Under the pieces are notes generated by a model that did not search any database, had not been told where the DNA came from, and saw only the letters and a program-made list of their open reading frames with translations. This document shows positions 1 to 30,580 of a stretch of 64,000 nucleotides of DNA, piece after piece. The position numbers were made by a program, and so were the translations under genes. This DNA is from an uncultured Thermoleophilia bacterium (GTDB lineage: Bacteria > Actinomycetota > Thermoleophilia > UBA2241). Where the stretch lies: NCBI GenBank assembly GCA_963702475.1, contig CAVPCT010000009.1:306008-370007 (forward strand), written 5' to 3'. How positions within the stretch are numbered: position 1 is the first letter of the stretch; each line of letters starts with the position of its first letter.

Positions 1-188
1 CTTCGTACGTGTTGTTCGCGTTCGTGCTGCTGACGTTCATCGCCATGTACTTCGGCTACTGGCGCAACCTCGTCGCAGCTTTGGTCTTCTACGGCCTGTG
101 CTCGCTCTGGTTCGTGCTGCACAGGTACAAGTTCGTGGACCGCACCAAGCTCTACACGATGCCGTGGCCGCGGCCCAAGGGCTACTGA
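1..188 (+). CDS. C-terminal end of a membrane permease (probably APC-family amine permease), 5'-truncated by the window edge
   Basis: Frame from position 3 reads SYVLFAFVLLTFIAMYFGYWRNLVAALVFYGLCSLWFVLHRYKFVDRTKLYTMPWPRPKGY, ending TGA at 186-188. Two hydrophobic helices; followed by a USP like the other permeases in the island. Confidence 0.65.
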   Translation, partial: SYVLFAFVLLTFIAMYFGYWRNLVAALVFYGLCSLWFVLHRYKFVDRTKLYTMPWPRPKGY

Positions 189-201
189 GCGAGGGGAGGA
201 C

Positions 202-648
202 ATGATGTTCGAGACTCTGCTGGTAGCTACCGACGGGTCCATAGCCGCGGAGAAGGCCGTGACCTGGGCCGTCGACTTCGCCAAACGGCACGACTCGAAG
301 CTCGTCGTGCTCAACGTCACACCTGACAAGCGTGTGCGGCTCCAGGACCAGGAGCCCAACGCCCCGCCCGCCGGCGACGTGTCGCCGGCGGACGCCGGGG
401 ATCTCGTCTCGGACGAGGCCCTGGCCCGGGCCGAGAGGCTGGCCAAGGAAGCGGGCGTGACCTACGTGCTCGAGGAGGTCTACGGCCGCAATATCGCCGC
501 CACCATCGCCAAGGAGGCGCTCAACGTCGGCGCCGACCACATCATCATCGGCTCCACCGGGGTGACCGCGCTGGCCACCTGCGTCCTCGGCTCGGTCGCG
601 CAGAACGTGGTGCACTACGCGCACTGTCCCGTGACGGTGGTCAGGTAA
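202..648 (+). CDS. Universal stress protein (USP)
   Basis: LLVATDGS N-terminus, IIIGSTG...VLGSVAQNVVHYAHCPVTVVR C-terminus; GGAGGG RBS. Confidence 0.93.
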   Translation: MMFETLLVATDGSIAAEKAVTWAVDFAKRHDSKLVVLNVTPDKRVRLQDQEPNAPPAGDVSPADAGDLVSDEALARAERLAKEAGVTYVLEEVYGRNIAATIAKEALNVGADHIIIGSTGVTALATCVLGSVAQNVVHYAHCPVTVVR

Positions 649-694
649 TGCGACGCCGAGGCCGCAGCCACGGCGCGGGGGAGGTGAGGACCAC

Positions 695-1363
695 ATGGAC
701 GTCACCCTCATCATCAAGATAGCCGTCATCGTGGCTGCGGCCCTCGGCCTCGGTTACCTGTACGTCACGTACGTCTATCGCGACCGCCACCGGACGCAGC
801 ACATGCTCGACGGCTTCCTGCCAATCCTGGAAGGGCCGACGGTAGGGAGAAGTTCCTGGGGCTACGAGCGCCTCGAGGGCGTCCTGGATGGAGACCGGGT
901 CAAGATCGACCTGCTCCCGGACTCGCTCATCACGCGGACCCTTCCCACGCTCTGGCTCGAGGTGTGCCTGTGCCGTCCTTTCGACGCGTTCCTGTGTGTG
1001 ATCACATTGTGCAACGGCATGGAGTACTTCGCCGACGAGGTCGACGAGGGCACGCTCCTCAACACGCCGAGCACCTGGCCCGAAGGCGTGAGGGTGCGAG
1101 GCAAGAGCTTCGGCAGCGTGGGGCTCCTGCGGCGCGTCGCGGACGTCGACATCGGGGCCTACCCGCACCTCAAGCTGCTGGTCTTCAGCGAGACCGGACT
1201 CAAGGTGGTCATGCGTGCCGCCCGCGGGGACGTCTCCCAATACAGGGTCATGCGGTCGGCAACCTTCGCTGAAGACTCAGTCAAACCCGAACTCGTCGAC
1301 GAGACGGTCCGGCTCGTGCGCCACCTCGAGCGCGTGCTGGTACGTGGAGAGGAGATAGCGTGA
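695..1363 (+). CDS. Conserved hypothetical protein with N-terminal membrane anchor
   Basis: 222-aa ORF, GGAGGTGAGG RBS, typical codon usage, N-terminal hydrophobic helix; its stop overlaps the next start. Confidence 0.8.
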   Translation: MDVTLIIKIAVIVAAALGLGYLYVTYVYRDRHRTQHMLDGFLPILEGPTVGRSSWGYERLEGVLDGDRVKIDLLPDSLITRTLPTLWLEVCLCRPFDAFLCVITLCNGMEYFADEVDEGTLLNTPSTWPEGVRVRGKSFGSVGLLRRVADVDIGAYPHLKLLVFSETGLKVVMRAARGDVSQYRVMRSATFAEDSVKPELVDETVRLVRHLERVLVRGEEIA

Positions 1364-1824
1364 GCAAGGTGCGCCGGGCCCGGCGGCCCCAGAAGCCGGC
1401 CCCCAAAGGCGAACTCAAGAAGCCGCGTCCGGTGTGGTTCGTCACGCTGCTGGCGTTCGTCCTGCCCGGGAGCGGCCAGTGGCTGAACGGCGCCCCCATC
1501 AGAGGCATGGTCATGCAGTTCAGCATGGTGCTGGGCGCGTACCTCACGTACCAGCTCACCACGCCCGAGATCTCGCCGGTCGGCCGCCTTGCCGGAGGCC
1601 TGCTGGTATGGGTCTTCTCGATCGTGGACGCCCATGGGATCGCCACCCGCAGGGTGAAGGCGTGGGCGCGCATAGAGGCGTCGCAGGCCGCCTCGCCGAA
1701 CCCACCGCAGGCGAAGAAGGCCGGCGGCGCGAGCGACGGCAAGCCGTCCGGAGGCGCCCCGCGACGCATGCAGCCGAAAGGCGCCTCCCGGCGGCCGGCG
1801 ACCTCGGGGAGTCACGACACCTGA
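1360..1824 (+). CDS. Hypothetical membrane protein (LAFVLPGSGQWLNG motif)
   Basis: GTGA overlap with the upstream gene; three hydrophobic segments; L-x-x-x-L-P-G-x-G-Q motif of small membrane proteins. Confidence 0.8.
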   Translation: MSKVRRARRPQKPAPKGELKKPRPVWFVTLLAFVLPGSGQWLNGAPIRGMVMQFSMVLGAYLTYQLTTPEISPVGRLAGGLLVWVFSIVDAHGIATRRVKAWARIEASQAASPNPPQAKKAGGASDGKPSGGAPRRMQPKGASRRPATSGSHDT

Positions 1825-1996
1825 GCGGTGCCGAAGGCCCGCAGGTGCAGAGCGGCCCGGGCGACGCCCGGGCCGCTCTGCGTACGCGGCCCTCACACCG
1901 CGCGCCACGTGGGACCAGGTGTGGGAGGCGCCCACCTGCGGAAGAACCGACCCACCGGCGGCAGCGGCCGCCGGCCGCAACTGACCGGGGGTGCCC

Positions 1997-2206
1997 ATGA
2001 GCATCACGCTCTACACGCGACCCGACTGTCGCTACTGTGACGCGGCGCGCCGCTACTTGGACGAGCGCGGCGATGCCTATGAAGAGCGGGACATCAGCGC
2101 CGACGTCGAGGCCGAACGGGAGGTCATCGCCATCACCGGCGGACCCCTGAGCGTGCCGATCACGGTCGAGGACGGCGACGTCAGGGTCGGCTTTCCGTAT
2201 CAATGA
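1997..2206 (+). CDS. Glutaredoxin-family (NrdH-like) protein
   Basis: ITLYTRPDCRYC CxxC motif, SVP cis-Pro, VGF end. Confidence 0.85.
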   Translation: MSITLYTRPDCRYCDAARRYLDERGDAYEERDISADVEAEREVIAITGGPLSVPITVEDGDVRVGFPYQ

Positions 2207-2310
2207 GGAGGGGCGCGAGGGCGTACGCGCTGGATCTTCCAGCACGACCCCGAGCGCCGGCGCGCGTGACGCGCCTGGACCCGCCACACCTGAGCTGACC
2301 GGGCGAGCCC

Positions 2311-2327
2311 TGCTCCATTATGGAGCA
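2311..2327. promoter_or_regulatory. 8-1-8 inverted repeat TGCTCCAT-T-ATGGAGCA, candidate operator
   Basis: Perfect palindrome in the AT-richer intergenic region upstream of the mtbB promoter. Confidence 0.4.
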
Positions 2328-2406
2328 CGTTCTTGATTGACTTGTCCAATCTGGTATTCTGTGCCCGGATTGCAGTCTTTTCGCATGCCCCAGAGCCCCG
2401 AAAGCC

Positions 2407-2435
2407 TTGACGGACACTCCGAGGCTACATACATT
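2407..2435 (+). promoter_or_regulatory. Sigma70-type promoter for the mtbB-corrinoid operon
   Basis: TTGACG (2407-2412), 17-nt spacer, TACATT (2430-2435). Confidence 0.55.
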
Positions 2436-2723
2436 GTGTCGCACACGCGAGGCCGGCTGTGCCCAAACGGCATACGCCTTGTACTGAAGCTATACTTCGT
2501 GGCCTCACGAGGTGACCAGCTATCGACTCCGAACGCTCGACGCGGTACCCCCGCGAACGGCAAAGGGAGGCCCGTCCTGTGTCGACGGACCATGCGATGC
2601 GATCCACCGAGCGTGCCGCGTCACCAGGGGGCTCGTTGCCTTGGATGACCGACGACGCCCCACGCCCACCGCCCGTGCGCGGTCTGTCTCCGCGCTCTCT
2701 CACCACAATGGAGGTGTGACGCA

Positions 2724-4124
2724 GTGAGCAAGATCTGGACCCGAATGGGTGACGGCAACGCCGTCGAACTGACCCCAGACGAACTCCGCCAGGACATCAT
2801 CGCGGCGACTGAAGACGCCGCGGACAAGGGGCACATCCCGCCCCTTGAAGAGAACGAGATCGACCACCTGTATGACCTCTTCGCGGCGCCGTACCGCATC
2901 ATCGGCGTCGAGCCCGGCCATGAAGTGCCGCTGACCAAGGACGAGACGGCGTGCACCCTCGTCTCCTCGCAGCTGTCGAGTGGTTCACACCTGGCGATAA
3001 GCCGCGAAGACGCAGTCGAAGTCTTCGAGCGCGTGTTCGCGTTCGACACCATGGAGCTGGGCTGGATCGACTACTCCTTCAAGCCGGCGAAGCCCATGGT
3101 CTCTCTGGACCAGGTCTCCATCGAGCGCATCATGGCCACCACCGTGTTCCCGGTGCTCTACGGCGCCATGCCGAACATGGGCCTCTACTACACGCCGGAC
3201 GGGCCGTTCACCAACCCGGCCGACCTCCTCGGCATGATGAAGGTCGAAGAGGCGCGTGAGGAGGAGATGAAGGCCGCCGAGCTCTGCATGGAAGACATGA
3301 TCTTCGTGTGCGAGCGCATGAACGAGATCGGCGCCGACGGCATCGACTTCGACACCACGGCCTCCGCGGGTGACGCCGACTTCTGGTCGGTCCTCAAGAC
3401 GGTCGAGCATCTCAAGGCCCACACCGACCTCGGCGTCGAGATGGGCATGTCCGGCGAGTTCATCCTCGGCATGCACGGCGAGGTCGAGTACAACGGCAAG
3501 AGGCTCGCCGGCATGTTCCCGCACCAGCAGCTGAAGTGCGCGGAAGAGGCGGGCGTCGACATCTTCGGCCCCGTGGTCAACACCAAGACCAACAAGTCCT
3601 GTGCCTGGAACGTCGCCCGCGCCGTCACGTTCGTCAAGGAAGTCTGCAAGCAGGCCACCATCCCGATCCACGCGAACGTGGGTATGGGCGTAGGCGGCAC
3701 GCCGATGTTCGAGACACCGCCGATCGACGCTCTCAGCCGCGCGAGCGTAGCCATGGTCGAGATCGCCAAGGTCGACGGGTTGTAGGTCGGCGTCGGCGAT
3801 CCCTACGGCATGTCCATCATGCACTCGATCGCATCTGGAATGGGTGGCATCCGCACCGCTGGAGACCTGGTGGCAAGGATGGAGCTCAATCACCGGATGA
3901 GGCTTCCCGAGGCGAAGAAGTACGTGGCCGACAAGCTCGGCGTCAGCGTGTTCGACCTGTCGGACTCCACCGTCATGCGCAACCTGCGCGAAGAGCTCAA
4001 CATCGGCGTGATCGAGGCGATCCCGGGCCTGGCGAAGGGCTACACCGCCAAGGCGCGCATCGCCGATCTCCTCGACATCAAGATCAACGGCGTCGAGCGC
4101 CAGATGGCGAAGATGCCGGCTTGA
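2724..4124 (+). CDS. mtbB: Pyrrolysine-containing dimethylamine:corrinoid methyltransferase (in-frame TAG at 3783-3785, codon 354)
   Basis: ORFs 2724-3785 and 3810-4124 are in one frame separated only by TAG. Read-through gives 466 aa with [15 protein letters not shown]...[13 protein letters not shown], the MtbB Pyl-site signature. TRMGDG N-terminus; corrinoid gene follows. Confidence 0.95.
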
Positions 4125-4184
4125 TGCGGGAGTCAGCGACTCTCTCGCAGGTTCAGCGAACTCTGACCCACGGAGGTCACGGGA

Positions 4185-4832
4185 ATGGCGAATGAAGACT
4201 TCTATGCGGATGCGAAAGCCGCAATCCGCGCGTGTGACGCCGACAAGTCCGCTCAGGTGGCAACAGACGCCCTCGCGGCCGGCGTAGCGCCCGACGACAT
4301 GCTGAAGCTGGGATTCATCCCGGGCATCAGCGCGATGGGCGATCTCTTCGAGCGCGGCGAGGTGTTCCTCCCCGAGCTCGTCCTCGCGGCGAACGCCATG
4401 ACGGCGGCTGCTGCGGTGTGTAACGCGGCCCTGCCCGAGGGCGAGGCGGAGGCGAAGGCCATCGTCGTCATCGGCACCGTCCAGGGCGACGTGCATGATA
4501 TCGGCAAGACCATCGTCGTCGCGTTCCTCAGGGCCAACGGCTACAACGTGTTCGACCTTGGTCGCGATATCTCGGGCGACAAGTTCATCGCCGCCGCGGA
4601 GGAGAAGGGCGCCGCCGTCATCGGTATGAGTGCCCTGCTCACCACCACCATGCGCGAGCAGACGCGTGTCATCGAGGCTCTCAAGGCCGCGGGTCTGCGC
4701 GACAAGTACAAGGTCATCGTCGGCGGCGGCGCCTGCACCCAGCAGTGGGCCGACAAGATCGGCGCGGACGCGTACGCCGAAGACGCCAACGACGGCATCC
4801 GCAAGATCAACGAGCTCACGGGAAACGCGTGA
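4185..4832 (+). CDS. mtbC: Methyltransferase cognate corrinoid protein (MtbC-like)
   Basis: B12-binding motif GDVHDIGK...SALLTTT...IVGGG, N-terminal cap domain (FLPELV); directly after mtbB. Confidence 0.9.
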   Translation: MANEDFYADAKAAIRACDADKSAQVATDALAAGVAPDDMLKLGFIPGISAMGDLFERGEVFLPELVLAANAMTAAAAVCNAALPEGEAEAKAIVVIGTVQGDVHDIGKTIVVAFLRANGYNVFDLGRDISGDKFIAAAEEKGAAVIGMSALLTTTMREQTRVIEALKAAGLRDKYKVIVGGGACTQQWADKIGADAYAEDANDGIRKINELTGNA

Positions 4833-4855
4833 CCGCACGTTGTTAGGGCGGGATC

Positions 4856-4892
4856 CCGGCGGCGCGGTGGAGCTACTCCGCCGCGCCGCCGG
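4856..4892. terminator. Strong hairpin between convergent genes (likely bidirectional terminator)
   Basis: CCGGCGGCGCGGTGGAG-CTA-CTCCGCCGCGCCGCCGG, 17-bp stem with one G-U pair. Confidence 0.7.
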
Positions 4893-4897
4893 CGCCC

Positions 4898-5779
4898 TCA
4901 GCGTTCACGCACCCATTTCGCGTAGATGTTGGCAGCACGCCGGTCCATCTCCTCGGTCTCGGTCACACCGCTGCGCTCAAGCGCCTCGGCCGCACCCTTC
5001 ACTCGTGCCCGGCGCAGACAGATCAGCGTGACGACAAGCAGGCTGCGCGTGCCCTTGTCGGCCGAGGGCAGCGCCTCCTCGATCGGGGGGATCACCCCTC
5101 CGCCGAGCTCTTCCAGGCCGAGTGCGAGCAGAGGGCCCACGACGGCCTCGCCGTACTCGGACGCCACGGAGATGACGTGCCGCACGCCGGCGTAGCGCAT
5201 CGCCGAGATCTTCGCGCGAGCCTCCGTGCGGCCCGAGTGGACCGTGGAGTACATGCGCATGATCGTGCTCCCTCGGTCCAGCTGCATCCGTGTCAGACTG
5301 GCGCTGATGCGCGAGAGCTGCCGGTCGATCTCCTCGTTGCGGGTCCGCGTCAGTTGCTCGACCTGCTCGCTCATCGCCGCGGCCGGTCCGGCGAGGTCGG
5401 GGCGCGATGCATCCGACGCGACAACGCGCAGCAGCTCGTGGGCGGCGGGCAGGTCACGGTAGCGGGCGTAGAGGTACACGGTGTACAGAGCGCCGCGGCG
5501 GCGCACGTCGTCGTCGGCGTCCAGCTGCCCGGCGACGTCGGTGAACGTCGCTTCGCCGAGCTCGACGAGCACGGCGCCGGCCTTGCGCTGCAGGCTCTCG
5601 TCCCCGAGGCAGGTCAGCAGCGACTCCCGGCCGTTCTGACCGAGGTCGGCGAGAGCCGCGAGGATGGGCCGGCGCACGTCGCGCCTGGTGGCCGCCGCGT
5701 ACAGCTGCGTGAGGCCGGCCACATCACCGGCGTCGTGAAGGCTGGTGATGTCGCTCTGGCTCGGCATCTGGTTGCTCAT
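4898..5779 (-). CDS. Hypothetical alpha-helical (HEAT-repeat-like) protein
   Basis: Real start MSNQMPS at 5779 with GGGAGAG RBS inside the long shadow ORF; DVAGLTQLY / RRPILAALADLG / RRRGALYTV repeats resemble HEAT units. Confidence 0.65.
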   Translation of the reverse strand: MSNQMPSQSDITSLHDAGDVAGLTQLYAAATRRDVRRPILAALADLGQNGRESLLTCLGDESLQRKAGAVLVELGEATFTDVAGQLDADDDVRRRGALYTVYLYARYRDLPAAHELLRVVASDASRPDLAGPAAAMSEQVEQLTRTRNEEIDRQLSRISASLTRMQLDRGSTIMRMYSTVHSGRTEARAKISAMRYAGVRHVISVASEYGEAVVGPLLALGLEELGGGVIPPIEEALPSADKGTRSLLVVTLICLRRARVKGAAEALERSGVTETEEMDRRAANIYAKWVRER

Positions 5780-5909
5780 CGGCTCTCCCCGGGACGTTCG
5801 CTGACATGCCGGCCACACGCCGGCGACGGACAGCGTACCCGCGCCGGTCGCGCAAGGCCAGCGAGGCACCCGGCTGCGGGCGAGCCACGGCCGGGCCCAT
5901 GCAAGGGTA

Positions 5910-5941
5910 TTGACTCCTCGGGTAGACGCAAGGTACCTTGC
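5910..5941 (+). promoter_or_regulatory. Promoter with overlapping 14-bp palindromic operator
   Basis: TTGACT (5910-5915), 18-nt spacer, TACCTT (5934-5939). Perfect palindrome GCAAGGTACCTTGC at 5928-5941 covers the -10. Confidence 0.55.
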
Positions 5942-6190
5942 CTCATCCTTCGGCCCGCCGCGCCCCATCGGGGGAGCGCCGGCGCGACCGACAGAGGTGT
6001 ATCCCTGGTCCTGCGTGCACGGCATCCGGGGGGATCGCCGTCGCACTGGGGAGGTGGTGCCGCAACCTGAGCCGCCGGACGACCACCGGTCTCGCGCCCG
6101 GTGCCGGCCCGTTTCATGCCGGCACGTCACCGGGCCAAAGCCATGGTCCCGGGATCTCTCACACAACGTCAACGAGCAGAGGGGGGAGCA

Positions 6191-7810
6191 ATGATAGTGG
6201 CAGCCGCGATCAGTCCAGTCTGGTACTGGGTCATCGTGCTCGGCTACATGCTCGTGCTGATCGGGATCGGCGCCTGGACGTACCGCTACCAGAAGCAGCA
6301 GAAGTCCGCGACCGACGAGCACGACGACTACTGGATCGCCAAGCGCCGCAACAACGCCCTCGTGGTGGGCTGCGCCATCGCTGCAGGCTGGTTCCTGATG
6401 GGCTTCATCACCTGGGCCATGTACAACACCTACATGTACGGCATCGGCGGCATCTGGGCCATGGTCGTACCGTGGACGGTGCTGCTGTTCTGCATGGTGA
6501 TCCTCGTGCCGTGGGTACGGCGCATGAAGGCCATCTCGCAGCCGCAGATGCTCCAGCAGCGCTTCGGACTGGCTCTGCGCGTGCTCGTGAGCCCGTTCAA
6601 CATGTTCTGCTTCATCATCTGGGCCGCGGCGGAGATCTGGACGGTCTCGCTGTACATGGCGTCGGCATTCGGCGTCCAACCCTGGGTCCTCTACATCGTC
6701 TTCGCCGTGCCCTGCGCCCTCTACATGGCCCTGGGCGGCTTCCACGCCGTCATCAGCGCCAACCTGCTGCAGTTCGCCATGGGCGTCACCTTCGTCACCA
6801 TCATCTTCTTCGTGATGGTCTTTGAGGCGTGGGACGCCCTGCCCAGTGGCCAGAGCATGATCGACTACCTCGGGAGCGTCGTACCGGCGGGCAACTCGGA
6901 AGGCGACAGTGCGCTCACGCTCTTCAGCCTGGGCATACCGTTCGCCATCTTCTCGCTCATCGCACTCCTGCCGGGGTGGGTGATCGAGGAGGACTGGTGG
7001 CTCAAGGCGCAGTCGGCCAAGAGCACGCGTGCCGCACGGCAGGGCATCTGGGCCAACCTGAGCTACAACCTCATCTGGATCCTCGGCCTGCCGAGCCTCA
7101 TCGGCCTCTTCGCCCTCGTGCTTTATCCGCCGGAAGTGCTCGACACCAAGCTGGCCGGGAACGCCTACGAGCTCATGCCGGTGTTCCTGGGTGACTACTT
7201 CCCGCCTTGGCTGCAGATGATCGTGTTCTGCCTCATGGCTGCACACGCCGTAGCCACGGTGGCTACGTTCACCAACGTGTCGGCCCTCAACATCAGCTAC
7301 GACGTCCTGCAGCCGCTCGTATACCGCAAGCGCGGGTGGGGTGACGCCAGGATCGTGCTGGCCAGCCGCATCGCGTCGCTGTTGGTCGTCATCGCCACCC
7401 TGGGCGTGACGTTCCTCATCGACATGCTGCCGCAGGGCCTGTGGGACGCGTACTACCTGTCCAGCGGTGTGCTCTCTGCTGCCGTCGGCGTCTCCGTACT
7501 CTCCATCTTCTGGAAGCGCGCCAACTTCGCCGGTGCTTTCGCTGCGTCGCTCGTCGGTGGCGTCACCACACTCGTGCTGTTCATCGTGGAGAAGTACGTC
7601 TGGGAGTACGACTGGCCGATCCCGATCCCGGATTCCATGGTCGCTACCGGCTACGCCTACGCGGTGGTCGGCGTGATCCTCGCCATCATCACCCTGGTCG
7701 TGGTCACGCTGCTGACGCCCAAGCCGCCGCAGATCAACCTCGACTCCATCTCGGCGCAACCCGTTGACGATCACGCCGAGTTCTTCGCCGGCGTGCGTGA
7801 GACGTACTGA
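6191..7810 (+). CDS. Sodium:solute symporter (SSS) family transporter
   Basis: ATG at 6191 after GAGGGGGGAG; about 13 hydrophobic segments; DYWIAKR, GGFHAVISANLLQ, WKRANFAGAFAA and SLLTP-like SSF motifs. Confidence 0.88.
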   Translation: MIVAAAISPVWYWVIVLGYMLVLIGIGAWTYRYQKQQKSATDEHDDYWIAKRRNNALVVGCAIAAGWFLMGFITWAMYNTYMYGIGGIWAMVVPWTVLLFCMVILVPWVRRMKAISQPQMLQQRFGLALRVLVSPFNMFCFIIWAAAEIWTVSLYMASAFGVQPWVLYIVFAVPCALYMALGGFHAVISANLLQFAMGVTFVTIIFFVMVFEAWDALPSGQSMIDYLGSVVPAGNSEGDSALTLFSLGIPFAIFSLIALLPGWVIEEDWWLKAQSAKSTRAARQGIWANLSYNLIWILGLPSLIGLFALVLYPPEVLDTKLAGNAYELMPVFLGDYFPPWLQMIVFCLMAAHAVATVATFTNVSALNISYDVLQPLVYRKRGWGDARIVLASRIASLLVVIATLGVTFLIDMLPQGLWDAYYLSSGVLSAAVGVSVLSIFWKRANFAGAFAASLVGGVTTLVLFIVEKYVWEYDWPIPIPDSMVATGYAYAVVGVILAIITLVVVTLLTPKPPQINLDSISAQPVDDHAEFFAGVRETY

Positions 7811-7854
7811 GCCGGGTCGGCGAAGGCCACTTCAGGCAAGAGAGGACGGTCAGC

Positions 7855-8310
7855 ATGGCATACACAATCGTGGTGGGGTACGACGGGTCCGAGCCGGCCA
7901 AGAAGGCGCTGGCCGCGGCCATCGAGTTCGCCAAGACCACACCCGACGCCGAGATCGTGGTCGTCTGCGGCCAGGACCGCAGGCCGGGGTACTTCTACTA
8001 TGACGACCAGCCACTGTGGAAAGAGGCCATCAAGCTCGACCAGATGTGGGAGCACATGGAGGCCAAGATCGAGGAGGACCTCCAGGAAGCGGTGAAGGTC
8101 GTCCAGGACGCAGACGTGAAGGCGACCGCTGCCTGCGGTCGCGGACGGCCGTCTTCGATCGTGCTGAACGTGGCGCGAGAGACCGGCGCCCGCCTCATCG
8201 TCGTGGGCACACACGGCTCCGGCAAGGACGAGGAGACCACGGTGATGGGCTCCACGACGACGGAGCTGCTTCACCAGACGCACGTGCCAGTGCTGGTCGT
8301 GCCTCACTGA
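7855..8310 (+). CDS. Universal stress protein (USP)
   Basis: IVVGYDGS...LIVVGTHG...MGSTTTELLHQTHVPVLVVP. Confidence 0.93.
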   Translation: MAYTIVVGYDGSEPAKKALAAAIEFAKTTPDAEIVVVCGQDRRPGYFYYDDQPLWKEAIKLDQMWEHMEAKIEEDLQEAVKVVQDADVKATAACGRGRPSSIVLNVARETGARLIVVGTHGSGKDEETTVMGSTTTELLHQTHVPVLVVPH

Positions 8311-8505
8311 CCACCGTGCGCGCCTGACGCGCACGGAGTGCCCGGCCGCCGGCGAGTCTCTGGCTCGCCGGCGGCCGGTAGTACGGCCCGGCCCGGGCCG
8401 TGGAACATACGGGGAGAGTCGCGACCGGCGGCCGTCCGGGGGCTCGTTCGTCTGAGCCCGGAGGTCCACCGGTCGTGTCCCCTCTTAACATCCTTGGGGG
8501 AGTCG

Positions 8506-9360
8506 GTGACCTTCGACGAATTCGCACTCATGCTCACAGCTGGGCCCAGGGCCAAGCTGCGGGCGGAAGTCTCCCTGGAGGACCGCGAGCGCATCCTGCG
8601 CTCCCTCATGGGCCGCCTTCCCGTCATGGTCTACCGCTGCGCCGACGACGCCCAGTGGACCATGGAGTTCGTGAGCGCCGGAGCAGAGGAGATCACCGGC
8701 TACAAGCCGGAGGAGCTCGTTGGCAACGCCCGGCTGGCGTACACCGACCTGGTGGTGCCGTGGCACTACGAGGGCGTCTGCCGCGACATCCAGCACGCCA
8801 TCGAGAAGCACAACGCGTGGACGACGTCCTACCCCATCATCACCGCGTCAGGCGACCGCAAGTGGGTGTGGGAGCGCGGTGTGGCCGTGCTCGACGACGC
8901 CGGGGAGGTGATAGCGCTTGCAGGGATCATCATCGACATGACCGTGGAGCGCGAGGCCGAGGAGTCACTCGAGCTCGCGCTCGCCGAGTGGCGCCAGGTG
9001 TTCGACGCCATGGACGACGCCGTGATGGTCCTGGACGGCGACGGCGAGGTGCTGCGAGCCAACGCGGCGGCAGCGGCTCTCAGCGGACTCGATCAGGCCG
9101 AGATGGCCGGGCTCAAGTGCTCGGACGCGCTGCAGGAGCTCTGCGGCCAGGCCCAGGGCATGTGTCCTCGCGACAGGGTGCTGCTGTCGGGGCGGACGGA
9201 GATGACCTACGTGGAGCACGAAGGCAGGCTGCTTCGCCTGACGTTCAAGCCGACCCCGGTCATGGACGGACGCGTCAACGGCGGCTTGTACGTCGTGAGC
9301 GACGTCACGGACGCCGTCCGGGCACGGCCGCAGGACGCACCGGGTACGTCCTACGTGTGA
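8506..9360 (+). CDS. Tandem PAS/PAC-domain sensor protein without output domain
   Basis: GTG at 8506 after GGGGGAG; MVYRC..D..WTMEFVS.GAEEITGY.PEEL and KWVWERG PAS/PAC, second PAS (FDAMDDAVMVLD...RAN); ends directly after the second PAS. Confidence 0.85.
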   Translation: MTFDEFALMLTAGPRAKLRAEVSLEDRERILRSLMGRLPVMVYRCADDAQWTMEFVSAGAEEITGYKPEELVGNARLAYTDLVVPWHYEGVCRDIQHAIEKHNAWTTSYPIITASGDRKWVWERGVAVLDDAGEVIALAGIIIDMTVEREAEESLELALAEWRQVFDAMDDAVMVLDGDGEVLRANAAAAALSGLDQAEMAGLKCSDALQELCGQAQGMCPRDRVLLSGRTEMTYVEHEGRLLRLTFKPTPVMDGRVNGGLYVVSDVTDAVRARPQDAPGTSYV

Positions 9361-9399
9361 GACGCGGCGGGCGCCGCCCGCCGCGCGTCTGCACCGGCG

Positions 9400-9741
9400 T
9401 CAGGATGCTGAGCGTCTGAGGAGGTCGGCCGCACTCGCGAAGAGCCATTCGGTGCGGGTGCGACACGTGACTATCGTGGCCAGGTCGAGCTCGCCCGGCA
9501 GCTCTTCGTCGACGAACGCGGCCGCAAGGTCCTTGACGCGGATCGGCTCCTGGCCGCCCCTCTCCATCTCGGCCAGTTCCATCATCACGGCCACGCCCTT
9601 GCCGTCCCACTCATTGGGGACCACTGCGCACGAGAAGACGAAGGGGTGACCGTCGAGCTCGTATTCCTGGATCTCCCGCCGGCGCGCCAAAGAGACGGGA
9701 TCGGTTGCCGGGTCCCCGCTGCGAACCAGCCACTCGCTCAT
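9400..9741 (-). CDS. Hypothetical protein (113 aa)
   Basis: MSEWLVRSG start with GGGAGGA RBS; typical codon usage. Confidence 0.6.
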   Translation of the reverse strand: MSEWLVRSGDPATDPVSLARRREIQEYELDGHPFVFSCAVVPNEWDGKGVAVMMELAEMERGGQEPIRVKDLAAAFVDEELPGELDLATIVTCRTRTEWLFASAADLLRRSAS

Positions 9742-9956
9742 CGTGTCCTCCCGCTCGTTCGCTCGGCGCATCGCCCGCCTCGAGTGCCAGTGTGGAAGTG
9801 CGAGAGCGGAATCTTGTGCCGTTCTGGCGAATTCAGTGCCCTGTGGGGCCTTATGCGGTAGAGTACTGCGCAACAGGGTGCGGGAAGCGGCAAAACAGAT
9901 GTTCACTGTGTCCATCTATAAGCTACGCACTAGGCCATAACAAACAACATTGAGCC

Positions 9957-9986
9957 TTGATGCAGGGGTCGCGTATCTCCTATAGT
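9957..9986 (+). promoter_or_regulatory. Sigma70-type promoter for the mttB-corrinoid operon
   Basis: TTGATG (9957-9962), 18-nt spacer, TATAGT (9981-9986); AGCCTTGA at the -35 is shared with the mtbB promoter. Confidence 0.5.
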
Positions 9987-10254
9987 CGCGCTCACCACCG
10001 TCCATAACGGCGACACATCGAGAAGGCTCTGTGTACTGTCTGGGTGCACGGCCTTTCTCATCGCACGTTGTCACACTCCGGGCTTCGGCCCACGCGTCGA
10101 CCATGACGGGCCACGTTCCCACCGTCGACTGGATCGTGGCGCGAACCGCGCTCAAGGGAGGAGGCGGGATGACGAGATGAGGGCGAGCCCACGAGGCCCT
10201 GCGGCCGGGTTCGCCCAGAACCGCTATCTGCAAAGTGCGTAAGAAGGAGGCGGA

Positions 10255-11730
10255 ATGATTCGAAGTCAAAGGTCAGGCATCAACCACCAGGGCGGCATCG
10301 GCATCGATGTCTTCAGCGAGGATGAGAGGCAGGCCATCCACTGGGGCACCGTCGAGGTGCTCGAGACGGCCGGCATCTGGGTGGAGGACGACGAGGCCCT
10401 CGACCTGTTCGCCGACGGCGGCTGCAAGGTCGACCGCTCGACGCGCAAGGTGCGGATCCCGCAGCACGTGCTCGAGGAGTGCATCAGTTGGGCGCCCTCC
10501 ACGGTCACCCTCTGCGGCCGCGACCCCGCCAAGGACCTCGTCATGGAGGGCCGGCGGGTCGCGTTCACCAACTTCGCCGAGGGAGTGAAGGCCGTCGACC
10601 TGTACGACGGCAAGCTTCGCCCGACCACCAAGAAGGACGTCGGCGACCTCGCCCGTCTCGTCGACGCGCTCTCCGACATCGAGGTCTACACGATCGCGGT
10701 GACGGCCACCGACGTGCCCCCGGAGGTCGCCGAGGCGCACCTCATCGAGCAGTCGTTGCTGAACACGACGAAGCCCATCTGCAGCCTGGCCCTCGCCCAT
10801 CACGGCGCCCGCCTCCACATCGACGCCGCGGCCGCCGTGGTCGGCGGCCACGACAAGCTGGCCGACCGGCCGATGCTGCTCTTCCTCAGCTGCCCGGTCA
10901 GCCCGCTCAAGCTCATGGGCGAGTTCAGCGGGTGCATCATCGAGGCGGCCCGCGCCCATCAGGTCGCGATGCCGCTATCGATGGCCATGTCAGGCGGCTC
11001 CGCCCCGGTCACCCTGGCCGGCACCATGGTCACGCACAACGCCGAGGTGCTCGCCGGCATCGTCCTGGCGCAGCTCGCCGAGAAGGGCGCCAAGTGCGTC
11101 TACGGCACCTCCACCACCGCCTTCGACCTGCAGCGCGCGGCCGCGACCGTGGGCACCCCGGAGCTCGGCCTCATCAGCGCGGCCGTGGCCGAGATGGGCC
11201 GCTACTATGGCCTGCCGACCTACGGCGCCGGGTTGTAGAGCGATTCCAAGCTCGGCGGCGACGCCCAGGTCGCGCACGAGAAGACCGTCACCGGCCTCCT
11301 GCCAGCGTTGGGAGGGCTCAACCTGATCTATGGAGCCGGGATGATCGAGTCGGGCGTCACCATCGACTACGGCACGCTCGTCATGGACAACGACATCGCC
11401 CGTATCTGCAAGTACGTCCTGCGTGGCATCCCCACGAACGACGCGACGCTGATGGTTGATGAGATCATCGAGGTGGGGTCCGAGGAGGACTTCCTCTCGA
11501 GGATGAGCACCCTGAAGCTGATGCGTGAACACCAGTCCAAGGCCGGCAACATCGACCGCCGCGTGCGCGAGGAGTGGGAGATGGACGGCGGCAAGGACAT
11601 GTACAGCCGCTGCAACGAGATGGCCAAGGAGCTCGTCGAGAGCCACACGGTTCCCGAGCTGCCGAGCGACGTCAAGGACCAGATCAGGGCCATCGTCGTC
11701 AAGGCCGAGAAGGACGCTGGAGTCGCCTGA
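10255..11730 (+). CDS. mttB: Pyrrolysine-containing trimethylamine:corrinoid methyltransferase (in-frame TAG at 11236-11238, codon 328)
   Basis: ORFs 10255-11238 and 11308-11730 share a frame. Read-through gives 491 aa with YYGLPTYGAGL-O-SDSKLGGDAQVAHEK...NLIYGAGMIESG, matching the Pyl site of MttB. Also SMAMSGGSAPVTLAGT and HNAEVL motifs; AAGAAGGAGG RBS. Confidence 0.95.
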
Positions 11731-11779
11731 GAGCTCAGCGCTCCGCAACGAACGCACGACGTGGAGGACATAGGATCCT

Positions 11780-12406
11780 ATGGCAGACTTTGACTCTCTC
11801 AAGCAGATGATCGTCGACGGCAACGACGCCGCCACGGCCGCCACCCAGGCGCTCGTGGACGGCGGCGCCTCCGCCCGCGATATCCTCGACAGCGCCCTGC
11901 TTCCCGGCATGGACATCGTCGGCGCGCAGATGAAGAGCGGCGACAAGTTCATCCCCGAGGTGCTGCTCAGCGCCCGCACCATGCAGGGCTGCCTCGACAT
12001 CATCAAGCCGCTTCTTGGTGAGGGCGGCGGCTCCCTCGGCACGGTCGTCATCGCCACCGTCGAGGGCGACATGCACGACATCGGCAAGAACCTCGTCGCC
12101 ATGCTGCTCAGCGGCGCCGGCTTCGAGGTCGTCAACCTCGGCAAGGGCATCACCTGCGCCGACATGGTCGCCGCCTGCAAAGAGCACGACGCCGACATCC
12201 TCGGCATGAGCGGCCTGCTGACCACCACCATCCCCAAGATGCCCGAGACCATCCAGGCCCTCAAGGACGCCGGCCTGCGCGACAAGGTCAAGGTCATCGT
12301 CGGCGGCGCCCCGGTCAGTGCCGAGTGGGCCGCCGAGGTGGGCGCCGACGCCTACGGTGCCAACGCGTCCCTCGGCGTCGAGAAGTGCAAGGAGCTCATG
12401 GGCTGA
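11780..12406 (+). CDS. mttC: Methyltransferase cognate corrinoid protein (MttC-like)
   Basis: GDMHDIGKNLV, SGLLTTT, IVGGAP motifs; directly after mttB. Confidence 0.9.
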   Translation: MADFDSLKQMIVDGNDAATAATQALVDGGASARDILDSALLPGMDIVGAQMKSGDKFIPEVLLSARTMQGCLDIIKPLLGEGGGSLGTVVIATVEGDMHDIGKNLVAMLLSGAGFEVVNLGKGITCADMVAACKEHDADILGMSGLLTTTIPKMPETIQALKDAGLRDKVKVIVGGAPVSAEWAAEVGADAYGANASLGVEKCKELMG

Positions 12407-12455
12407 GTCCCAGCCCGTGAGGGCGGCCTCGCCGCCCTGGATGAGCTGCGTGACG

Positions 12456-12500
12456 GGGAGCGCCCCCGCCGCCTACCCGGCGGCGGGGGCGCTCCCTTGT
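12456..12500 (+). terminator. Intrinsic terminator after mttB-mttC
   Basis: GGGAGCGCCCCCGCCGCC-TACCC-GGCGGCGGGGGCGCTCCC perfect 18-bp stem, then TTGT. Confidence 0.75.
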
Positions 12501-12531
12501 CGTCCGCCTCCCCCGAAGCCACGAAACCCTG

Positions 12532-12559
12532 TTGACGCGCGCCGAGACCGACGTATGGT
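12532..12559 (+). promoter_or_regulatory. Putative promoter of the APC permease
   Basis: TTGACG (12532-12537), 16-nt spacer, TATGGT (12554-12559). Confidence 0.5.
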
Positions 12560-12752
12560 TCGTTGTACAAAGGGCAGGGGCCCACGCCGGGCCATGGACA
12601 CAAGGAGGATGCGACAGCCGAAGCAGACAAGGGACCCGGCCCCGCACGGTCTCGGCGACATGTCAAGGGCCCGGATGGGCACCGACGCCCTCAGCGCCAC
12701 CAAGGGCCAGGCGCCAGAGTGAACGTCAGGCAGCGTACGCACGGGGGAGAGC

Positions 12753-14363
12753 ATGGCACAGAACGACTACCTTGAAGGGTACTCAGAGGAGTACAAGGCA
12801 TCCCGGATGAACACGAACATGCGCCGCGACCTGAGCTGGGTCGGCGCTTTCTTCGTCGCCGCCGGAGTGCCCGCGCTGGTCCTCTTCCAGATGGGCGGCG
12901 TCTCCGGCATGACCGGGGCGGTTGCAGCGCTCGTCTGGACGATCTCGGTCCTCATCGGCTTCGTCGACGCGTTCACCTACGCGGAGATCGCCGGGCTGCA
13001 CCCCAAGAAGTCAGGCGGCACGGCCGTCCACGGCGCCACCGCCTGGATCCGCTACATCCGCCCGACGGCGGCCATCTCGCTGTGGTGCAACTGGCTGGCG
13101 TGGACACCGGTGCTCGCCATCGGCGCCGGCCTCGGGGCCTCGTATCTTCTGTCCATCTTCTACGCACCCGACTCCACGATCATGACGTGGCAGTGGACCA
13201 TTGCCGACCTGGGCTTCCTCAAGGACGGCCTCACGCTGCGTATCAACGCCGTGTTCATCGTCGGCGCCGTCATCATCCTGGCCGTCTGGAACATCCAGCA
13301 CTACGGCATCCTGCGCACCGCGCGCGTACAGACGATCCTCACCATCGGCGCCGTCACGCCGCTGCTGGTGCTCTCGATCGTGCCGCTGGTCACCGGCGAC
13401 GTCGTGATGAGCAACTTCTCGCCCTTCACGCCCGTCAACGGCGCCTGGGACATCACCGGCTGGGAGTTCTTCCTCGGGGCCCTCTTCATCTGCGCCTGGA
13501 CGACCTACGCCTTCGAGACCGCCGTCTGCTACATGAGTGAGTTCAAGAACCCGGCGAAGGACATGTCGAAGGCGATCATCATCTCCGGCCTGTTCTGCAT
13601 CCTGTGCTTCACGCTCATCCCGTTCGTGTTCCAGGGTGTGCTCGGCACCGAGTACATGCTGCAGGCCGACGTGATCTCCGGTGCGGCGGTGCCCCAGGCC
13701 TGGGCCGACGTCGTGAGCGCCGGCAGCTTCCTGACCAACGTCATCATCGTGCTCCTGTTCTTCACGGTGGTCGTCGCGATCATGACGGCCATGTCCGGCT
13801 CGTCGCGCACGCTGTTCCAAGGCGGGCAGGACGGCTGGCTGCCCAAGTACCTGTCGCACCTGAACAACCACAAGGTGCCCACGTACGCCATGTGGACCGA
13901 CCTCGGCGTCAACCTCGTGCTGCTGCTCATGTCGGACTACCTGTTCGTGCTGGCGGTGTCCAACTGCAACTACATGATCTTCAACTTCCTGAACCTGAAC
14001 GCAGGCTGGATCCACCGCATCGACAACGCCAAAGTGCCGCGGCCGTACAAGGCGCCGCTGCCCCTGTTCGTGCTCGGCGCCTGCTTCGCCTACTTGAACG
14101 CGTTCCTCCTCGGTGCCGGCGCGAACGCGTGGGGCTCGGGGACGCTCCTCATGGGCTGGATCACGGCGCTCATAGCACTGCCGTTCTTCTACTATCGCCA
14201 CTACGTGACGGACAAGGGCCAGTTCCCCAAGCACATGTGGGACGACCTGCTGCTCGAGGGCGAGACGGAGCTCGGGCCGACGAAGGCCGGCATCAAGCCG
14301 TACATCGCGGTGGCCGGCGGCCTGGCGTCCATGGCGCTCGGCTACGTCATCTTCTGGGTCTGA
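12753..14363 (+). CDS. APC-family permease, probable methylated-amine transporter
   Basis: 12+ TM segments; GVPALVL, YAEIAGL.P.KSGG, FETAVCY.SEFKNP, SSRTLFQ and RPYKAP motifs; lies next to mttBC. Confidence 0.88.
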   Translation: MAQNDYLEGYSEEYKASRMNTNMRRDLSWVGAFFVAAGVPALVLFQMGGVSGMTGAVAALVWTISVLIGFVDAFTYAEIAGLHPKKSGGTAVHGATAWIRYIRPTAAISLWCNWLAWTPVLAIGAGLGASYLLSIFYAPDSTIMTWQWTIADLGFLKDGLTLRINAVFIVGAVIILAVWNIQHYGILRTARVQTILTIGAVTPLLVLSIVPLVTGDVVMSNFSPFTPVNGAWDITGWEFFLGALFICAWTTYAFETAVCYMSEFKNPAKDMSKAIIISGLFCILCFTLIPFVFQGVLGTEYMLQADVISGAAVPQAWADVVSAGSFLTNVIIVLLFFTVVVAIMTAMSGSSRTLFQGGQDGWLPKYLSHLNNHKVPTYAMWTDLGVNLVLLLMSDYLFVLAVSNCNYMIFNFLNLNAGWIHRIDNAKVPRPYKAPLPLFVLGACFAYLNAFLLGAGANAWGSGTLLMGWITALIALPFFYYRHYVTDKGQFPKHMWDDLLLEGETELGPTKAGIKPYIAVAGGLASMALGYVIFWV

Positions 14364-14378
14364 GGCGAGGTGGCAGTG

Positions 14379-14819
14379 ATGGCATACAGCATCGTGGTGG
14401 GCTACGACGGTTCCGAGCACTCGGTGAGGGCGCTCGACGCGGCCATCGAGTGGGCGAAGCTCCGTGGTGACGCCGAGATCATGGTCGCCTGCGCGCAGCA
14501 CCGTTCGGCGCCGGGCGTGGGGTTCCGCGGCCTCGACTTCGGCGTGGAAGAGATGTGGGACAAGATGCAGGTCCGCATCGAGGCGGAGCTCGATGAGGCC
14601 GCGGCCCGTGTGAAGGCGGCCGGCATCGCGGTCGCCACGGCCTGCACCCCGGACCGCGCCGACGAGAGCATCATCAAGATCGCCCGCGACACGGGCGCGC
14701 AGCTCATCGTGCTCGGCGTCAAGGGCGCGGGTTCTGTGGAGAAGCAGCGCACTGCCGTGGGCTCGACCACGACGCGCGTGCTCCAGGAAGCGGGCGGCAT
14801 ACCCGTGCTGGTCGTCTAA
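14379..14819 (+). CDS. Universal stress protein (USP), paralog of 7855-8310
   Basis: MAYSIVVGYDGS...LIVLGVKG...VGSTTTRVLQ...PVLVV. Confidence 0.93.
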   Translation: MAYSIVVGYDGSEHSVRALDAAIEWAKLRGDAEIMVACAQHRSAPGVGFRGLDFGVEEMWDKMQVRIEAELDEAAARVKAAGIAVATACTPDRADESIIKIARDTGAQLIVLGVKGAGSVEKQRTAVGSTTTRVLQEAGGIPVLVV

Positions 14820-14848: not shown

Positions 14849-14893
14849 GAGGCCGCGGCGAAGCCCAGCTCTACCGGGCTTCGCCGCGGCCTC
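14849..14893. terminator. 18-bp perfect inverted repeat between convergent genes
   Basis: GAGGCCGCGGCGAAGCCC-N9-GGGCTTCGCCGCGGCCTC. Confidence 0.7.
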
Positions 14894-15440
14894 CGGCGTC
14901 GCGGTCGCCGTTCTCCACGGACTCTTCGTCGTCGAGATCGTCGTCCTCGTCGTCCAGCAGCCCCCGCGCGTCAAGCCACTCCACCACGTCGCGCGCCCGC
15001 TGGGCGACGTCCTCGTGAGGGTCTTCTGCGAGCCACCTCAGGCCGTCGCCTGCCGGAGCGCCGATGCGCTGCAGACACTCGAACGCGAGGATCTGGAACA
15101 GGACCCTGACCCGCTCGTCCCCGTACTCGTCAAAGGCTCGCACCGCCGCCACGAGCGGGTCGACGGCCGGCTCGCCGAGCTTGACGAGGACGACGACGCA
15201 CTGATCCAGCATCTTGATGCTACGCTGCGGCAGCATCTTGCGGCGGCCGACGGCGTGATCCTGAGCCCAGACGGCGGTCTCGTAAAGGTACTCCACGAGG
15301 GCCGGCACGTCTTTGCGTAGCGACGCCAGAGCCGCGCGACCGACCTTGGGCTCCTTGGTGTACAAGGCCCAGTCCACCAGGCGCGGAAAATCGCCCTTGC
15401 GCCTCATCTGCTCGAAGTCCGGGCCGTCGAAGATGCCCAC
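14871..15440 (-). CDS. Hypothetical HEAT-repeat-like protein with acidic tail
   Basis: GTG at 15440 after GGAGG; MGIFDGPDFEQMRRKGDFPRLVDWAL, LVKLGEPAVDPLV, LQRIGAPA. Confidence 0.65.
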   Translation of the reverse strand: MGIFDGPDFEQMRRKGDFPRLVDWALYTKEPKVGRAALASLRKDVPALVEYLYETAVWAQDHAVGRRKMLPQRSIKMLDQCVVVLVKLGEPAVDPLVAAVRAFDEYGDERVRVLFQILAFECLQRIGAPAGDGLRWLAEDPHEDVAQRARDVVEWLDARGLLDDEDDDLDDEESVENGDRDAGGRGEAR

Positions 15441-15609
15441 ATCCACCTCCACGGCGATCCCCTGAGGTCCGTCGCCGCGCTCGCAGTGTACCGGCGCCCT
15501 GACCGGCACGCCAGTGAGGTATACACCCTCAGCGCCGGCCGGCGGGGCGGCAGTGGCGACGTCCCGGGCGTACCATGGATGCGAGAGAGGCGGAGACCGC
15601 GAGCCGCGT

Positions 15610-15638
15610 TTGACGCCAAATACCCCCATAGGTATGTT
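15610..15638 (+). promoter_or_regulatory. Promoter with CsoR/RcnR-type operator
   Basis: TTGACG-17-TATGTT with ATACC-CCCATA-GGTAT (15620-15635) spanning the spacer and -10, resembling the CsoR-family ATACC-N6-GGTAT operator. Confidence 0.55.
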
Positions 15639-15679
15639 GTCCCACAACCGCACGAGCGCTACCGAAGAGAGGAGAGGGC

Positions 15680-16024
15680 ATGCAAGGCCGCGTGGACATC
15701 GAGGCCGGGATCTGCCTCCACAAGACCTCGGCCGTGGCTTCCACGGACGACATGCGCATGGTGACCTTCAGCATGGAGACGACCTGCGCCAACATCGAGC
15801 GCCTCATGGAGATCGTGGCCAACGGCGAGGCGTTCGACGCGTACCACGAGATCGACACGCGCGTGGAGAGCGACATCGTCGCGGCGGGGAAGACGGCGCG
15901 CGTCTGCACCGACTGCGTCGTCCCCGTCTCGCTGCTCAAGGCCATGCGCATCGCCGCGGGACTGGCGATGGTCAAGGACGTACATGTCTCCGTGGTGGAG
16001 GGCGACCAGCCGGCTCAGAGCTGA
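15680..16024 (+). CDS. Small Cys-rich hypothetical protein (DUF6951-like)
   Basis: GIC.H.T, TTC.NI, CTDCVVP cysteine pattern; GAGGAGAGG RBS. Family assignment is from memory. Confidence 0.7.
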   Translation: MQGRVDIEAGICLHKTSAVASTDDMRMVTFSMETTCANIERLMEIVANGEAFDAYHEIDTRVESDIVAAGKTARVCTDCVVPVSLLKAMRIAAGLAMVKDVHVSVVEGDQPAQS

Positions 16025-30250: not shown

Positions 30251-30251
30251 G

Positions 30252-30524: not shown

Positions 30525-30580
30525 GGAGCTTCTCCTCGTGATGCGTGGAGGGCTGAACGCCGATGCTACCTGACCGACCC

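Follow-up and report, generated by a model that had tools for sequence, protein, structure and literature searches.

A Putative Methylamine Utilization Island in a Thermoleophilia-Type Actinobacterium Predicted to Decode UAG as Pyrrolysine in Few Genes

A 64,000-nucleotide stretch of an actinobacterial genome (hereafter the window; C9:306008-370007 of contig CAVPCT010000009.1, or C9, so that window position 1 is C9:306008) opens within a 26.9 kb chromosomal block situated between recX and rny. In all likelihood, this block is an island for the use of mono-, di-, and trimethylamine in a Thermoleophilia-type bacterium that decodes UAG as pyrrolysine (Pyl) in few genes. Three substrate modules, mtmB-mtmC, mtbB-mtbC, and mttB-mttC, follow each other in a row, each pairing a methyltransferase gene interrupted by a single in-frame TAG with a gene for a corrinoid protein. 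The source genome (G000; 4.31 Mb, 9 contigs, ~70% G+C) is a metagenome-assembled genome (MAG); its contigs are designated C2, C3, etc., and positions given without a contig refer to the window. The surveys of other genomes are samples, so a gene not found in them is not thereby absent.

Methyltransferase Genes with an In-Frame TAG and the Pyrrolysine Machinery

The dimethylamine:corrinoid methyltransferase gene mtbB (2724-4124, forward strand) codes for 466 amino acids if its TAG (3783-3785, codon 354) is read through. The product matches Dimeth_Pyl (PF09505) at 656 bits, passing the curated cut-off, and scores 544.4 bits against the NCBIfam equivalog TIGR02368 (cut-off 369.1). The trimethylamine:corrinoid methyltransferase gene mttB (10255-11730, forward strand; TAG at 11236-11238, codon 328) codes for 491 amino acids when read in the same way; its product matches MTTB (PF06253) at 300 bits, again above the curated cut-off, and reaches 619.2 bits against TIGR02369 (cut-off 525). 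The monomethylamine methyltransferase gene mtmB, likewise with one TAG, is located 3.2 kb upstream of the window (C9:301399-302769; PF05369, 661 bits).

The position of the TAG in these genes can be compared with solved Methanosarcina structures (1l2q, 1nth, and 1tv2 for MtmB; 7xcl, 7xcm, and 7xcn for MttB). Codon 328 of mttB aligns with a residue printed as X in the chain 7xcl_A, which on a reading of the entry is the pyrrolysine, and as K in 7xcm. The TAG of mtmB aligns with residue 202 of 1tv2_A, printed there as K, which we take to be the pyrrolysine of that enzyme. No solved relative of the mtbB product was found to anchor its TAG; the TAG column is common to the eight other MtbB loci of the genome, and every listed full-length MtbB match in the 56 of 60 sampled family members possessing this enzyme also features a TAG. 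The codon-position G+C pattern indicates a single coding frame running through the TAG of both mtbB and mttB. Downstream of the TAG, the G+C content at third codon positions (GC3) is 0.88-0.91, the codon usage is native, and the alignments extend to the ends of the family models. Hence, as the preliminary description of the window had it, mtbB and mttB each contain one in-frame TAG at the Pyl position of the family, and the conservation of the TAG columns together with the complete set of pyl genes supports the assignment of the enzymes, with the product of mtmB, to the predicted pyrrolysine type.

That description had also proposed searching the genome for mtmB and for the genes of pyrrolysine synthesis and decoding. 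Apart from mtmB, mentioned above, all of these are present on another contig, with the proteins scoring above their curated cut-offs. The pylB, pylC, and pylD genes (C3:637885-640975) are followed by a 73-nt tRNA-Pyl(CUA) gene with a 6-bp anticodon stem (pylT; C3:641046-641118) and by pylSn (C3:642228-642485), and pylSc (C3:657647-658372) is encoded on the strand opposite to pylSn. The respective scores and cut-offs are 314.6 and 178.15 for PylSc, 126.2 and 51.15 for PylSn, 438.1 and 348.2 for PylB, 209.1 and 150.05 for PylD, and 323.8 (the sum of two matched pieces) and 248.3 for PylC. The two halves of pylS are ~15 kb apart (C3:642189-658501), with a gene for a corrinoid protein, saccharopine and aldehyde dehydrogenase genes, a branched-chain-type ABC transporter, a BetI-type TetR regulator, and a TAG-bearing mtbB between them; in the 17 named relatives with a locus long enough to cover both halves, the corresponding gap is ~2 kb. 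A possible Pyl codon in an aldehyde dehydrogenase gene near the pyl genes was rejected: this TAG stands as codon 2 in an open reading frame (ORF) that had been extended too far, i.e., an artefact of start choice.

At the same time, TAG terminates 433 of the 2927 crude ORFs (14.8%) and is, therefore, still a stop codon. This is a frequency at variance with the rarity or absence of TAG stops expected under a genome-wide reassignment of UAG to Pyl, which has been reported for some archaea (Kivenson et al. 2025, as cited in PMC13695967). Since UAG is not reassigned throughout the genome, the insertion of Pyl would compete with termination, as in other Pyl-using bacteria. The genome also harbors a tRNA-Sec gene (C3:167171-167268), so the organism probably recodes both UGA (as selenocysteine) and UAG (as pyrrolysine).

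The enzymes of the island are not the only ones of their kind in the genome. A TAG occupies the pyrrolysine column at 9 MtbB, 15 MttB, and 1 MtmB loci (25 altogether, a few of them split over frames), and ~45 further matches to the MttB superfamily and four to the MtmB family display an ordinary residue or a gap in this column; ~25 corrinoid-protein loci were matched. All of the paralogues scored (5 of 5 MtbB and 12 of 12 Pyl-type MttB) pass the equivalog cut-offs for dimethylamine and trimethylamine methyltransferases; therefore, the scores give no sign of new specificities. The idea that model scores would reveal substrate divergence among the paralogues was rejected on these grounds, and only the gene neighborhoods hint at such a divergence: they include amino-acid, peptide, and MFS transporters, choline/ethanolamine kinase, decarboxylases, and aminotransferases, along with regulators of the TetR, DeoR, GntR, and MerR types. 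Thus, the region C2:33001-48000 combines a TAG-bearing mtbB with choline/ethanolamine kinase, non-Pyl MtmB and MttB homologues, two corrinoid proteins, an APC permease, and a DeoR regulator, and looks like a predicted set for the stepwise demethylation of a choline-like or ethanolamine-like compound. Two MttB paralogues, 44-45% identical to MttB of the window, feature Leu at the TAG position (C4:42548-43981 and C4:59964-61364), the latter still scoring above the trimethylamine methyltransferase cut-off (610 bits); both are presumptive natural replacements of Pyl by Leu. The mtbB and mttB paralogues split over frames (C7:37206-38562, C5:362174-365021, and C5:931603-933068) represent either assembly frameshifts or decaying copies.

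The Block between recX and rny

The preliminary description placed the island at positions 1-14819. This region does belong to the island, but both ends were cut: the block extends ~9.5 kb upstream of the window and continues to ~17004 (C9:296.5-323.4 kb, or window -9.5 kb to 17.0 kb). Its left border is recX (C9:295773-296468), followed by a reverse-strand APC permease, a LuxR-type response regulator with a GAF histidine kinase, mtmB, mtmC, small membrane ORFs, and another APC permease. At the right border, the chromosomal backbone resumes outside the island with rny, coding for RNase Y (17399-18934, forward strand). The upstream genes and the right end at 17004 thus unite three methylamine modules and four permeases (three APC and one SSF) in one recX-rny block.

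Two more species of the genus (G134 and G216) carry the same block next to rny and miaB with an unchanged gene order and with identities of 88% for mtmB, 82-85% for mtbB, 85-92% for mttB, and 89-91% for rny; a member of another genus (G201) carries part of it. Since the block occupies the same place in these two species, chimerism of the contig, which the preliminary description had named as grounds for abandoning its interpretation, can be dismissed. In four further genomes of the genus (G002, G014, G008, and G110), recX adjoins rny, and recA-recX-rny-miaB are contiguous without any island gene. Judging by this comparison of gene order, the lineage likely acquires or loses the block in its entirety. 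Two of the genomes with the empty site, G002 and G014 (1.7-1.8 Mb, 98% complete), gave no match for PylS, MtbB, COX1, or ACS, and appear to be streamlined relatives without the whole trait.

Within the window, each methyltransferase gene is followed by its own corrinoid-protein gene on the forward strand, in agreement with the preliminary description: an mtbC-like one after mtbB (4185-4832, 215 amino acids) and an mttC-like one after mttB (11780-12406, 208 amino acids). Both products display a D-x-H-x-x-G stretch, presumably the His-on cobalamin-binding motif, and both Pfam domains, B12-binding and B12-binding_2, are present in all three corrinoid proteins of the island.

The transport genes are arranged in a characteristic manner. 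The window begins with the last 62 codons (1-188) of the forward-strand APC permease gene that starts at C9:304774 and codes for 473 amino acids (AA_permease, AA_permease_2); the nearest model to this protein, that of ethanolamine permease (TIGR00908), is matched below its cut-off. Directly 3' of it lies a gene for a universal stress protein, Usp1 (202-648, forward strand; PF00582, E 2.6e-29). A sodium:solute symporter (SSF) permease of 569 amino acids (6101-7810, forward strand; PF00474, with a match to TIGR00813 below the cut-off) precedes Usp2 (7855-8310, forward strand; PF00582), and an APC-family permease (12753-14363, forward strand; PF13520) scoring 753.3 against the 'trimethylamine N-oxide permease' model NF053774 (cut-off 690) precedes Usp3 (14370-14819, forward strand; PF00582). 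Hence, of the three permeases attributed to the window in the preliminary description, two are complete and the third is represented only by its last 62 codons. Three of the four island permease genes directly precede a Usp gene (1-648, 6101-8310, and 12753-14819), and this pairing, which is kept in relatives, may reflect a transporter-regulator pair. A forward-strand gene (8338-9360; PAS_4, PAS_9, PAS_3) codes for a possible sensor, which has two PAS domains but lacks an output domain. The Usp genes, the PAS protein, and the pair of GAF kinase and response regulator may be the controllers of the island.

The remaining genes of the block are less telling. A conserved family-less protein of 222 amino acids (695-1363, forward strand), with the G+C pattern of a coding sequence, has copies 41-59% identical at the same place in G201, G134, and G216; the next one, of 154 amino acids (1360-1824, forward strand), is also family-less and has counterparts in relatives. 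The small glutaredoxin-like protein encoded at 1991-2206 (forward strand; PF00462) belongs to the non-selenium form of the NCBIfam Uxx-star family (NF041212, 75.3 vs. a cut-off of 66); its reading as a selenoprotein was discarded, as read-through of the TGA yields no stop two codons on. On the reverse strand, there are a conserved ORF with an approximate start (4898-5800), supported by codon-position G+C and by a homologue that occupies the corresponding place in G134 (41% identity) and matching no family above the threshold, and an ORF of 171 amino acids (9400-9915) with a coding pattern and no family match. The last genes of the island have no match in the four empty-site genomes: a conserved ORF of 260 amino acids (14871-15653, reverse strand; 55-58% identical in G134 and G216), a DUF6951 protein (15680-16024, forward strand; PF22263), and a conserved ORF of 271 amino acids (16189-17004, forward strand), 81-86% identical beside rny in G134 and G216.

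Distribution, Alternative Explanations and the Fate of the Methyl Group

Among 400 further genomes sampled from the class, PylS was detected in 73 of the 79 that belong to the same family, in 9 of the 61 from a second one, and in none of the 260 from the ten remaining families; in the rest of the phylum, it was found in none of the 369 genomes sampled. MtbB is present in 56 of the 60 family members sampled for it, with up to 11 matches per relative. Among genomes bearing names, 25 PylSc relatives are 64-73% identical to the protein of the source genome; 19 are labelled 'Thermoleophilia bacterium', 3 Actinomycetota, 1 Actinomycetes, 1 Deltaproteobacteria, and 1 Zixibacteria, and one of the 25 is UBA2241. 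In 23 of these 25 loci, pylSc has an amidase gene in its neighborhood, as in the source genome, the amidases being 65-77% identical. This distribution argues for the Pyl trait as an inherited feature of the family. The labels and the shared neighborhood also bear out the earlier placement of the source organism among Thermoleophilia-like Actinomycetota. The flanking genes noted in the preliminary description, those of RNase Y, RsiG-like, FHA, MerR, and ProS proteins, are all present. The MerR, FHA, RsiG-like, and DUF4388 genes stand together at 29067-31894 of the window, adjoining Roadblock/LC7 and small-GTPase-like genes.

Could the TAGs be true stops, leaving the methyltransferase genes truncated or decaying and the island non-functional? 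The ordinary use of TAG as a stop in ~15% of ORFs and the splitting of some paralogues over frames (mtbB at C7 and C5:362 kb; mttB at C5:364 kb and C5:932 kb) would fit such a view, but it is scarcely credible in the face of a TAG kept in one column across the 9 MtbB, 15 MttB, and 1 MtmB loci and the listed full-length MtbB of 56 relatives, of the coding signal and model alignment maintained beyond the TAG, and of the complete Pyl machinery. Another conceivable explanation, a recent import of the island from distant Pyl users (Firmicutes, Deltaproteobacteria, or methanogens), would be in line with its presence or absence at a single chromosomal site within one genus and with a G+C content in 2 kb windows slightly under that of the flank (0.64-0.69 vs. 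0.68-0.72). Against it stands the native codon usage, which had been noted before and was confirmed here: the relative synonymous codon usage of 12 of the 13 island segments lies at the 16th-87th percentile of the distances to the genome set (mtbC is at the 98th), and the GC3 of 0.86-0.95 is in the range of rny, miaB, and hflX. Nor was an integrase or transposase seen among the ORFs scanned at the island, and the best candidate for mobile-element borders, a left/right direct repeat of 16 nt at 94% (E 0.07), was not convincing. Furthermore, MttB orthologues of the same genus are 85-92% identical; the MttB of Methanosarcina matches at 374 bits. Donors are also available within the lineage itself, given that nearly the whole family has PylS and several copies of Pyl-type MtbB. 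A recent import from afar is thus very improbable.

The operation of this system can be tentatively outlined as follows. The permeases would import the amines, and each Pyl enzyme would transfer a methyl group to the Co(I) form of its own corrinoid protein. [quoted passage not shown] A RACo-type activator would re-reduce the corrinoid once it is oxidized. Candidates for the components named in the preliminary description as worth looking for were located in the genome. Three loci combine RACo_C_ter, Raco_middle, RACo_linker, and Fer2 domains and thus represent RACo/RamA-type ASKHA activators, none of them within the island. A methyl-THF methyltransferase is suggested by a pterin-binding protein (C3:503718-504611) scoring 290.8 against NF005719, 'methyltetrahydrofolate:corrinoid/iron-sulfur protein methyltransferase' (cut-off 259), whose gene clusters with a non-Pyl MttB homologue away from the island. 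The Wood-Ljungdahl genes include an acsA-acsB-acsD-acsC-RACo-acsE operon for CODH/ACS (C5:442.8-453.2 kb).

Still, a number of observations weigh against this picture. The MAG is rated 93.8% complete with 6.5% contamination, and the ~430 ordinary TAG stops would have to escape read-through. In the comparison with TIGR02370 (cut-off 215.3), mtmC scores above the cut-off (227.6) and both mtbC (212.3) and mttC (169.2) below it. The third step of the outline depends on the choice of THF as the acceptor: no gene for a methyltransferase 2 was found within the island, MtrH was not found as a methyl-transfer partner in the genome at its 93.8% completeness, and 11 matches to the URO-D family, some beside corrinoid proteins, represent alternative partners. 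The acetyl-CoA route of the fourth step is not universal in the family, since ACS was found in only 37 of the same 60 sampled members. Finally, a gene for haem-copper oxidase subunit I resides on the 1.14 Mb contig C3 together with the pyl genes, and a gene for cytochrome bd subunit II adjoins the mtbB cluster on C2. The organism may, then, respire oxygen, which would be at odds with an oxygen-sensitive corrinoid/acetyl-CoA pathway, unless respiration and this pathway operate in separate circumstances.

The last points feed a further explanation, according to which the main use of the system would be to scavenge nitrogen and oxidize C1 units in oxic or micro-oxic settings, with terminal oxidases receiving the electrons, rather than to support an anaerobic, acetogen-like energy metabolism. 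It is favored by the oxidase genes of the source genome, by the haem-copper oxidase found in 31 of the 60 sampled relatives, by the 23 of 60 in which ACS was not found, most of which still possess MtbB, and by the expression of bacterial mtxB also in drier, more oxygenated palsa, as stated by Ellenbogen et al. 2023 (PMC10805028). The CODH/ACS operon, which is complete and includes RACo and methyltransferase genes of its own, is, like tRNA-Sec, typical of anaerobes and speaks against it. So does the chemistry of Co(I) corrinoids, which is sensitive to oxygen. On balance, this explanation seems unlikely, if by no means negligible. The anaerobic lifestyle assumed in the preliminary description is not borne out, however: the haem-copper oxidase gene makes a strictly anaerobic reading doubtful, and the oxidases of the relatives and the cytochrome bd gene point the same way.

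Relation to Known Systems and Implications for the Family

Among the closest known systems is that of Methanosarcina barkeri (MtmB/MtmC, MtbB/MtbC, MttB/MttC, RamA, and pylTSBCD). Both organisms possess these three enzyme families, in each of which one UAG stands at the position that aligns, and both have cobalamin-binding partners, an ASKHA-type reductive activator, pylB, pylC, pylD, and tRNA-Pyl. Unlike Methanosarcina, the host is bacterial and its PylS is split into pylSn and pylSc; no MtrH was found in the genome, and the likely methyl acceptor is THF via the pterin-binding methyltransferase, not coenzyme M; the activator features the N-terminal 2Fe-2S domain of the RACo type; and a single island unites all three modules, along with the four permeases, the Usp genes, and a two-component system. 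Other Pyl-using bacteria include Desulfitobacterium hafniense, Acetohalobium arabaticum, Bilophila, and the deltaproteobacterial symbiont of Olavius. A split pylSn/pylSc, the use of UAG as a stop elsewhere in the genome, and the transfer of methyl groups to THF (predicted for the source organism) with a link to the Wood-Ljungdahl pathway are common to them and the source organism. It differs from them in belonging to another phylum, in the position of pylSc ~15 kb from pylSn, pylBCD, and pylT and on the other strand, and in the much larger number of Pyl-type paralogues (25 loci).

Closer relatives have already surfaced in the literature. Guo et al. 2022 (PMC9630628) count two Actinobacteria among 81 bacterial genomes with PylRS, and their supplement names the PylRS of 'Thermoleophilia bacterium' and 'Actinobacteria bacterium ADurb.BinA094'; judged by eye, PylSc of the source genome is clearly similar to both of these printed sequences. 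According to PMC10805028, some Actinobacteriota MAGs from Stordalen Mire express Pyl-encoding mttB and mtbB, and Bog-752, tabled in the Thermoleophilia order UBA2241, is among the most active methylotrophs. McDaniel et al. 2020 (PMC7438021) present UBA2241 as a novel order, the MAGs of which came from lake hypolimnia and thawing permafrost and are poorly described. A search of the literature on pyrrolysine or methylamine genes in Thermoleophilia or Actinomycetota revealed nothing relevant beyond PMC9630628 and PMC10805028. The earlier view that the trait occurs in a lineage where it is little described is weakly contradicted by what these two papers already say of Pyl in the clade. The printed Thermoleophilia MAGs share the lineage label and the gene types with the source genome, and the parts of the respective papers at hand do not describe the pyl cluster, the recX-rny island or its variable occurrence within a genus, the distribution of the trait across the family, or the number of paralogues. 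The trait is, thus, already briefly in print for this lineage, and the system is a new example, not a new kind; its family-wide distribution, a three-module island that a given site may either carry or lack, the scattering of the two halves of pylS, and the 25 TAG-bearing paralogues were not found in print.

A survey of contigs assembled from sequencing runs added little on expression. No listed run contained at least half of the sampled words of the stretch, and four runs were compared at 90% likeness. Short contigs of the RNA libraries X15-X17 and of the DNA run X1 cover parts of mtbB, mtbC, mttB, and mttC, and two contigs of X15 bridge the positions of the TAG of mtbB (3603-3937) and of that of mttB (10929-11364), respectively. 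Most of the contig pieces are 90-95% alike and, therefore, come from relatives. The contigs of the RNA libraries are only a hint of expression, since contigs cannot show transcription.

Several implications extend beyond the island itself. A consequence for genome annotation is that every one of these genes will be broken at its TAG by standard gene callers. For the study of the genetic code, a high-GC actinobacterial host using UAG as a stop for hundreds of genes and, as predicted here, as a pyrrolysine codon in ~25, with pylS split and scattered, is of relevance. That some species of a genus carry the entire three-substrate island at a recX-rny site which is empty in others provides a natural comparison for assessing what the island contributes.

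On a broader scale, it is conceivable, though for now doubtful, that one Thermoleophilia family, probably GTDB UBA2241, represents a lineage of soil, peat, and sediment bacteria in which Pyl decoding is vertically inherited, that can also respire O2, and that has multiplied its Pyl methyltransferases far beyond any described organism. Some of the paralogues might then act on other secondary and tertiary amines, as the peptide/amino-acid transporters, choline/ethanolamine kinase, and aldehyde or saccharopine dehydrogenases among their neighbors suggest. With ~15% of its genes ending in TAG, such a lineage would need to limit read-through, either through regulation or through the sequence context. 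Methylotrophic methanogens use methylamines directly as substrates. Hence, a widespread family of soil, peat, and sediment using Pyl enzymes would compete for this precursor of methane or redirect methylamines to CO2 or acetate.

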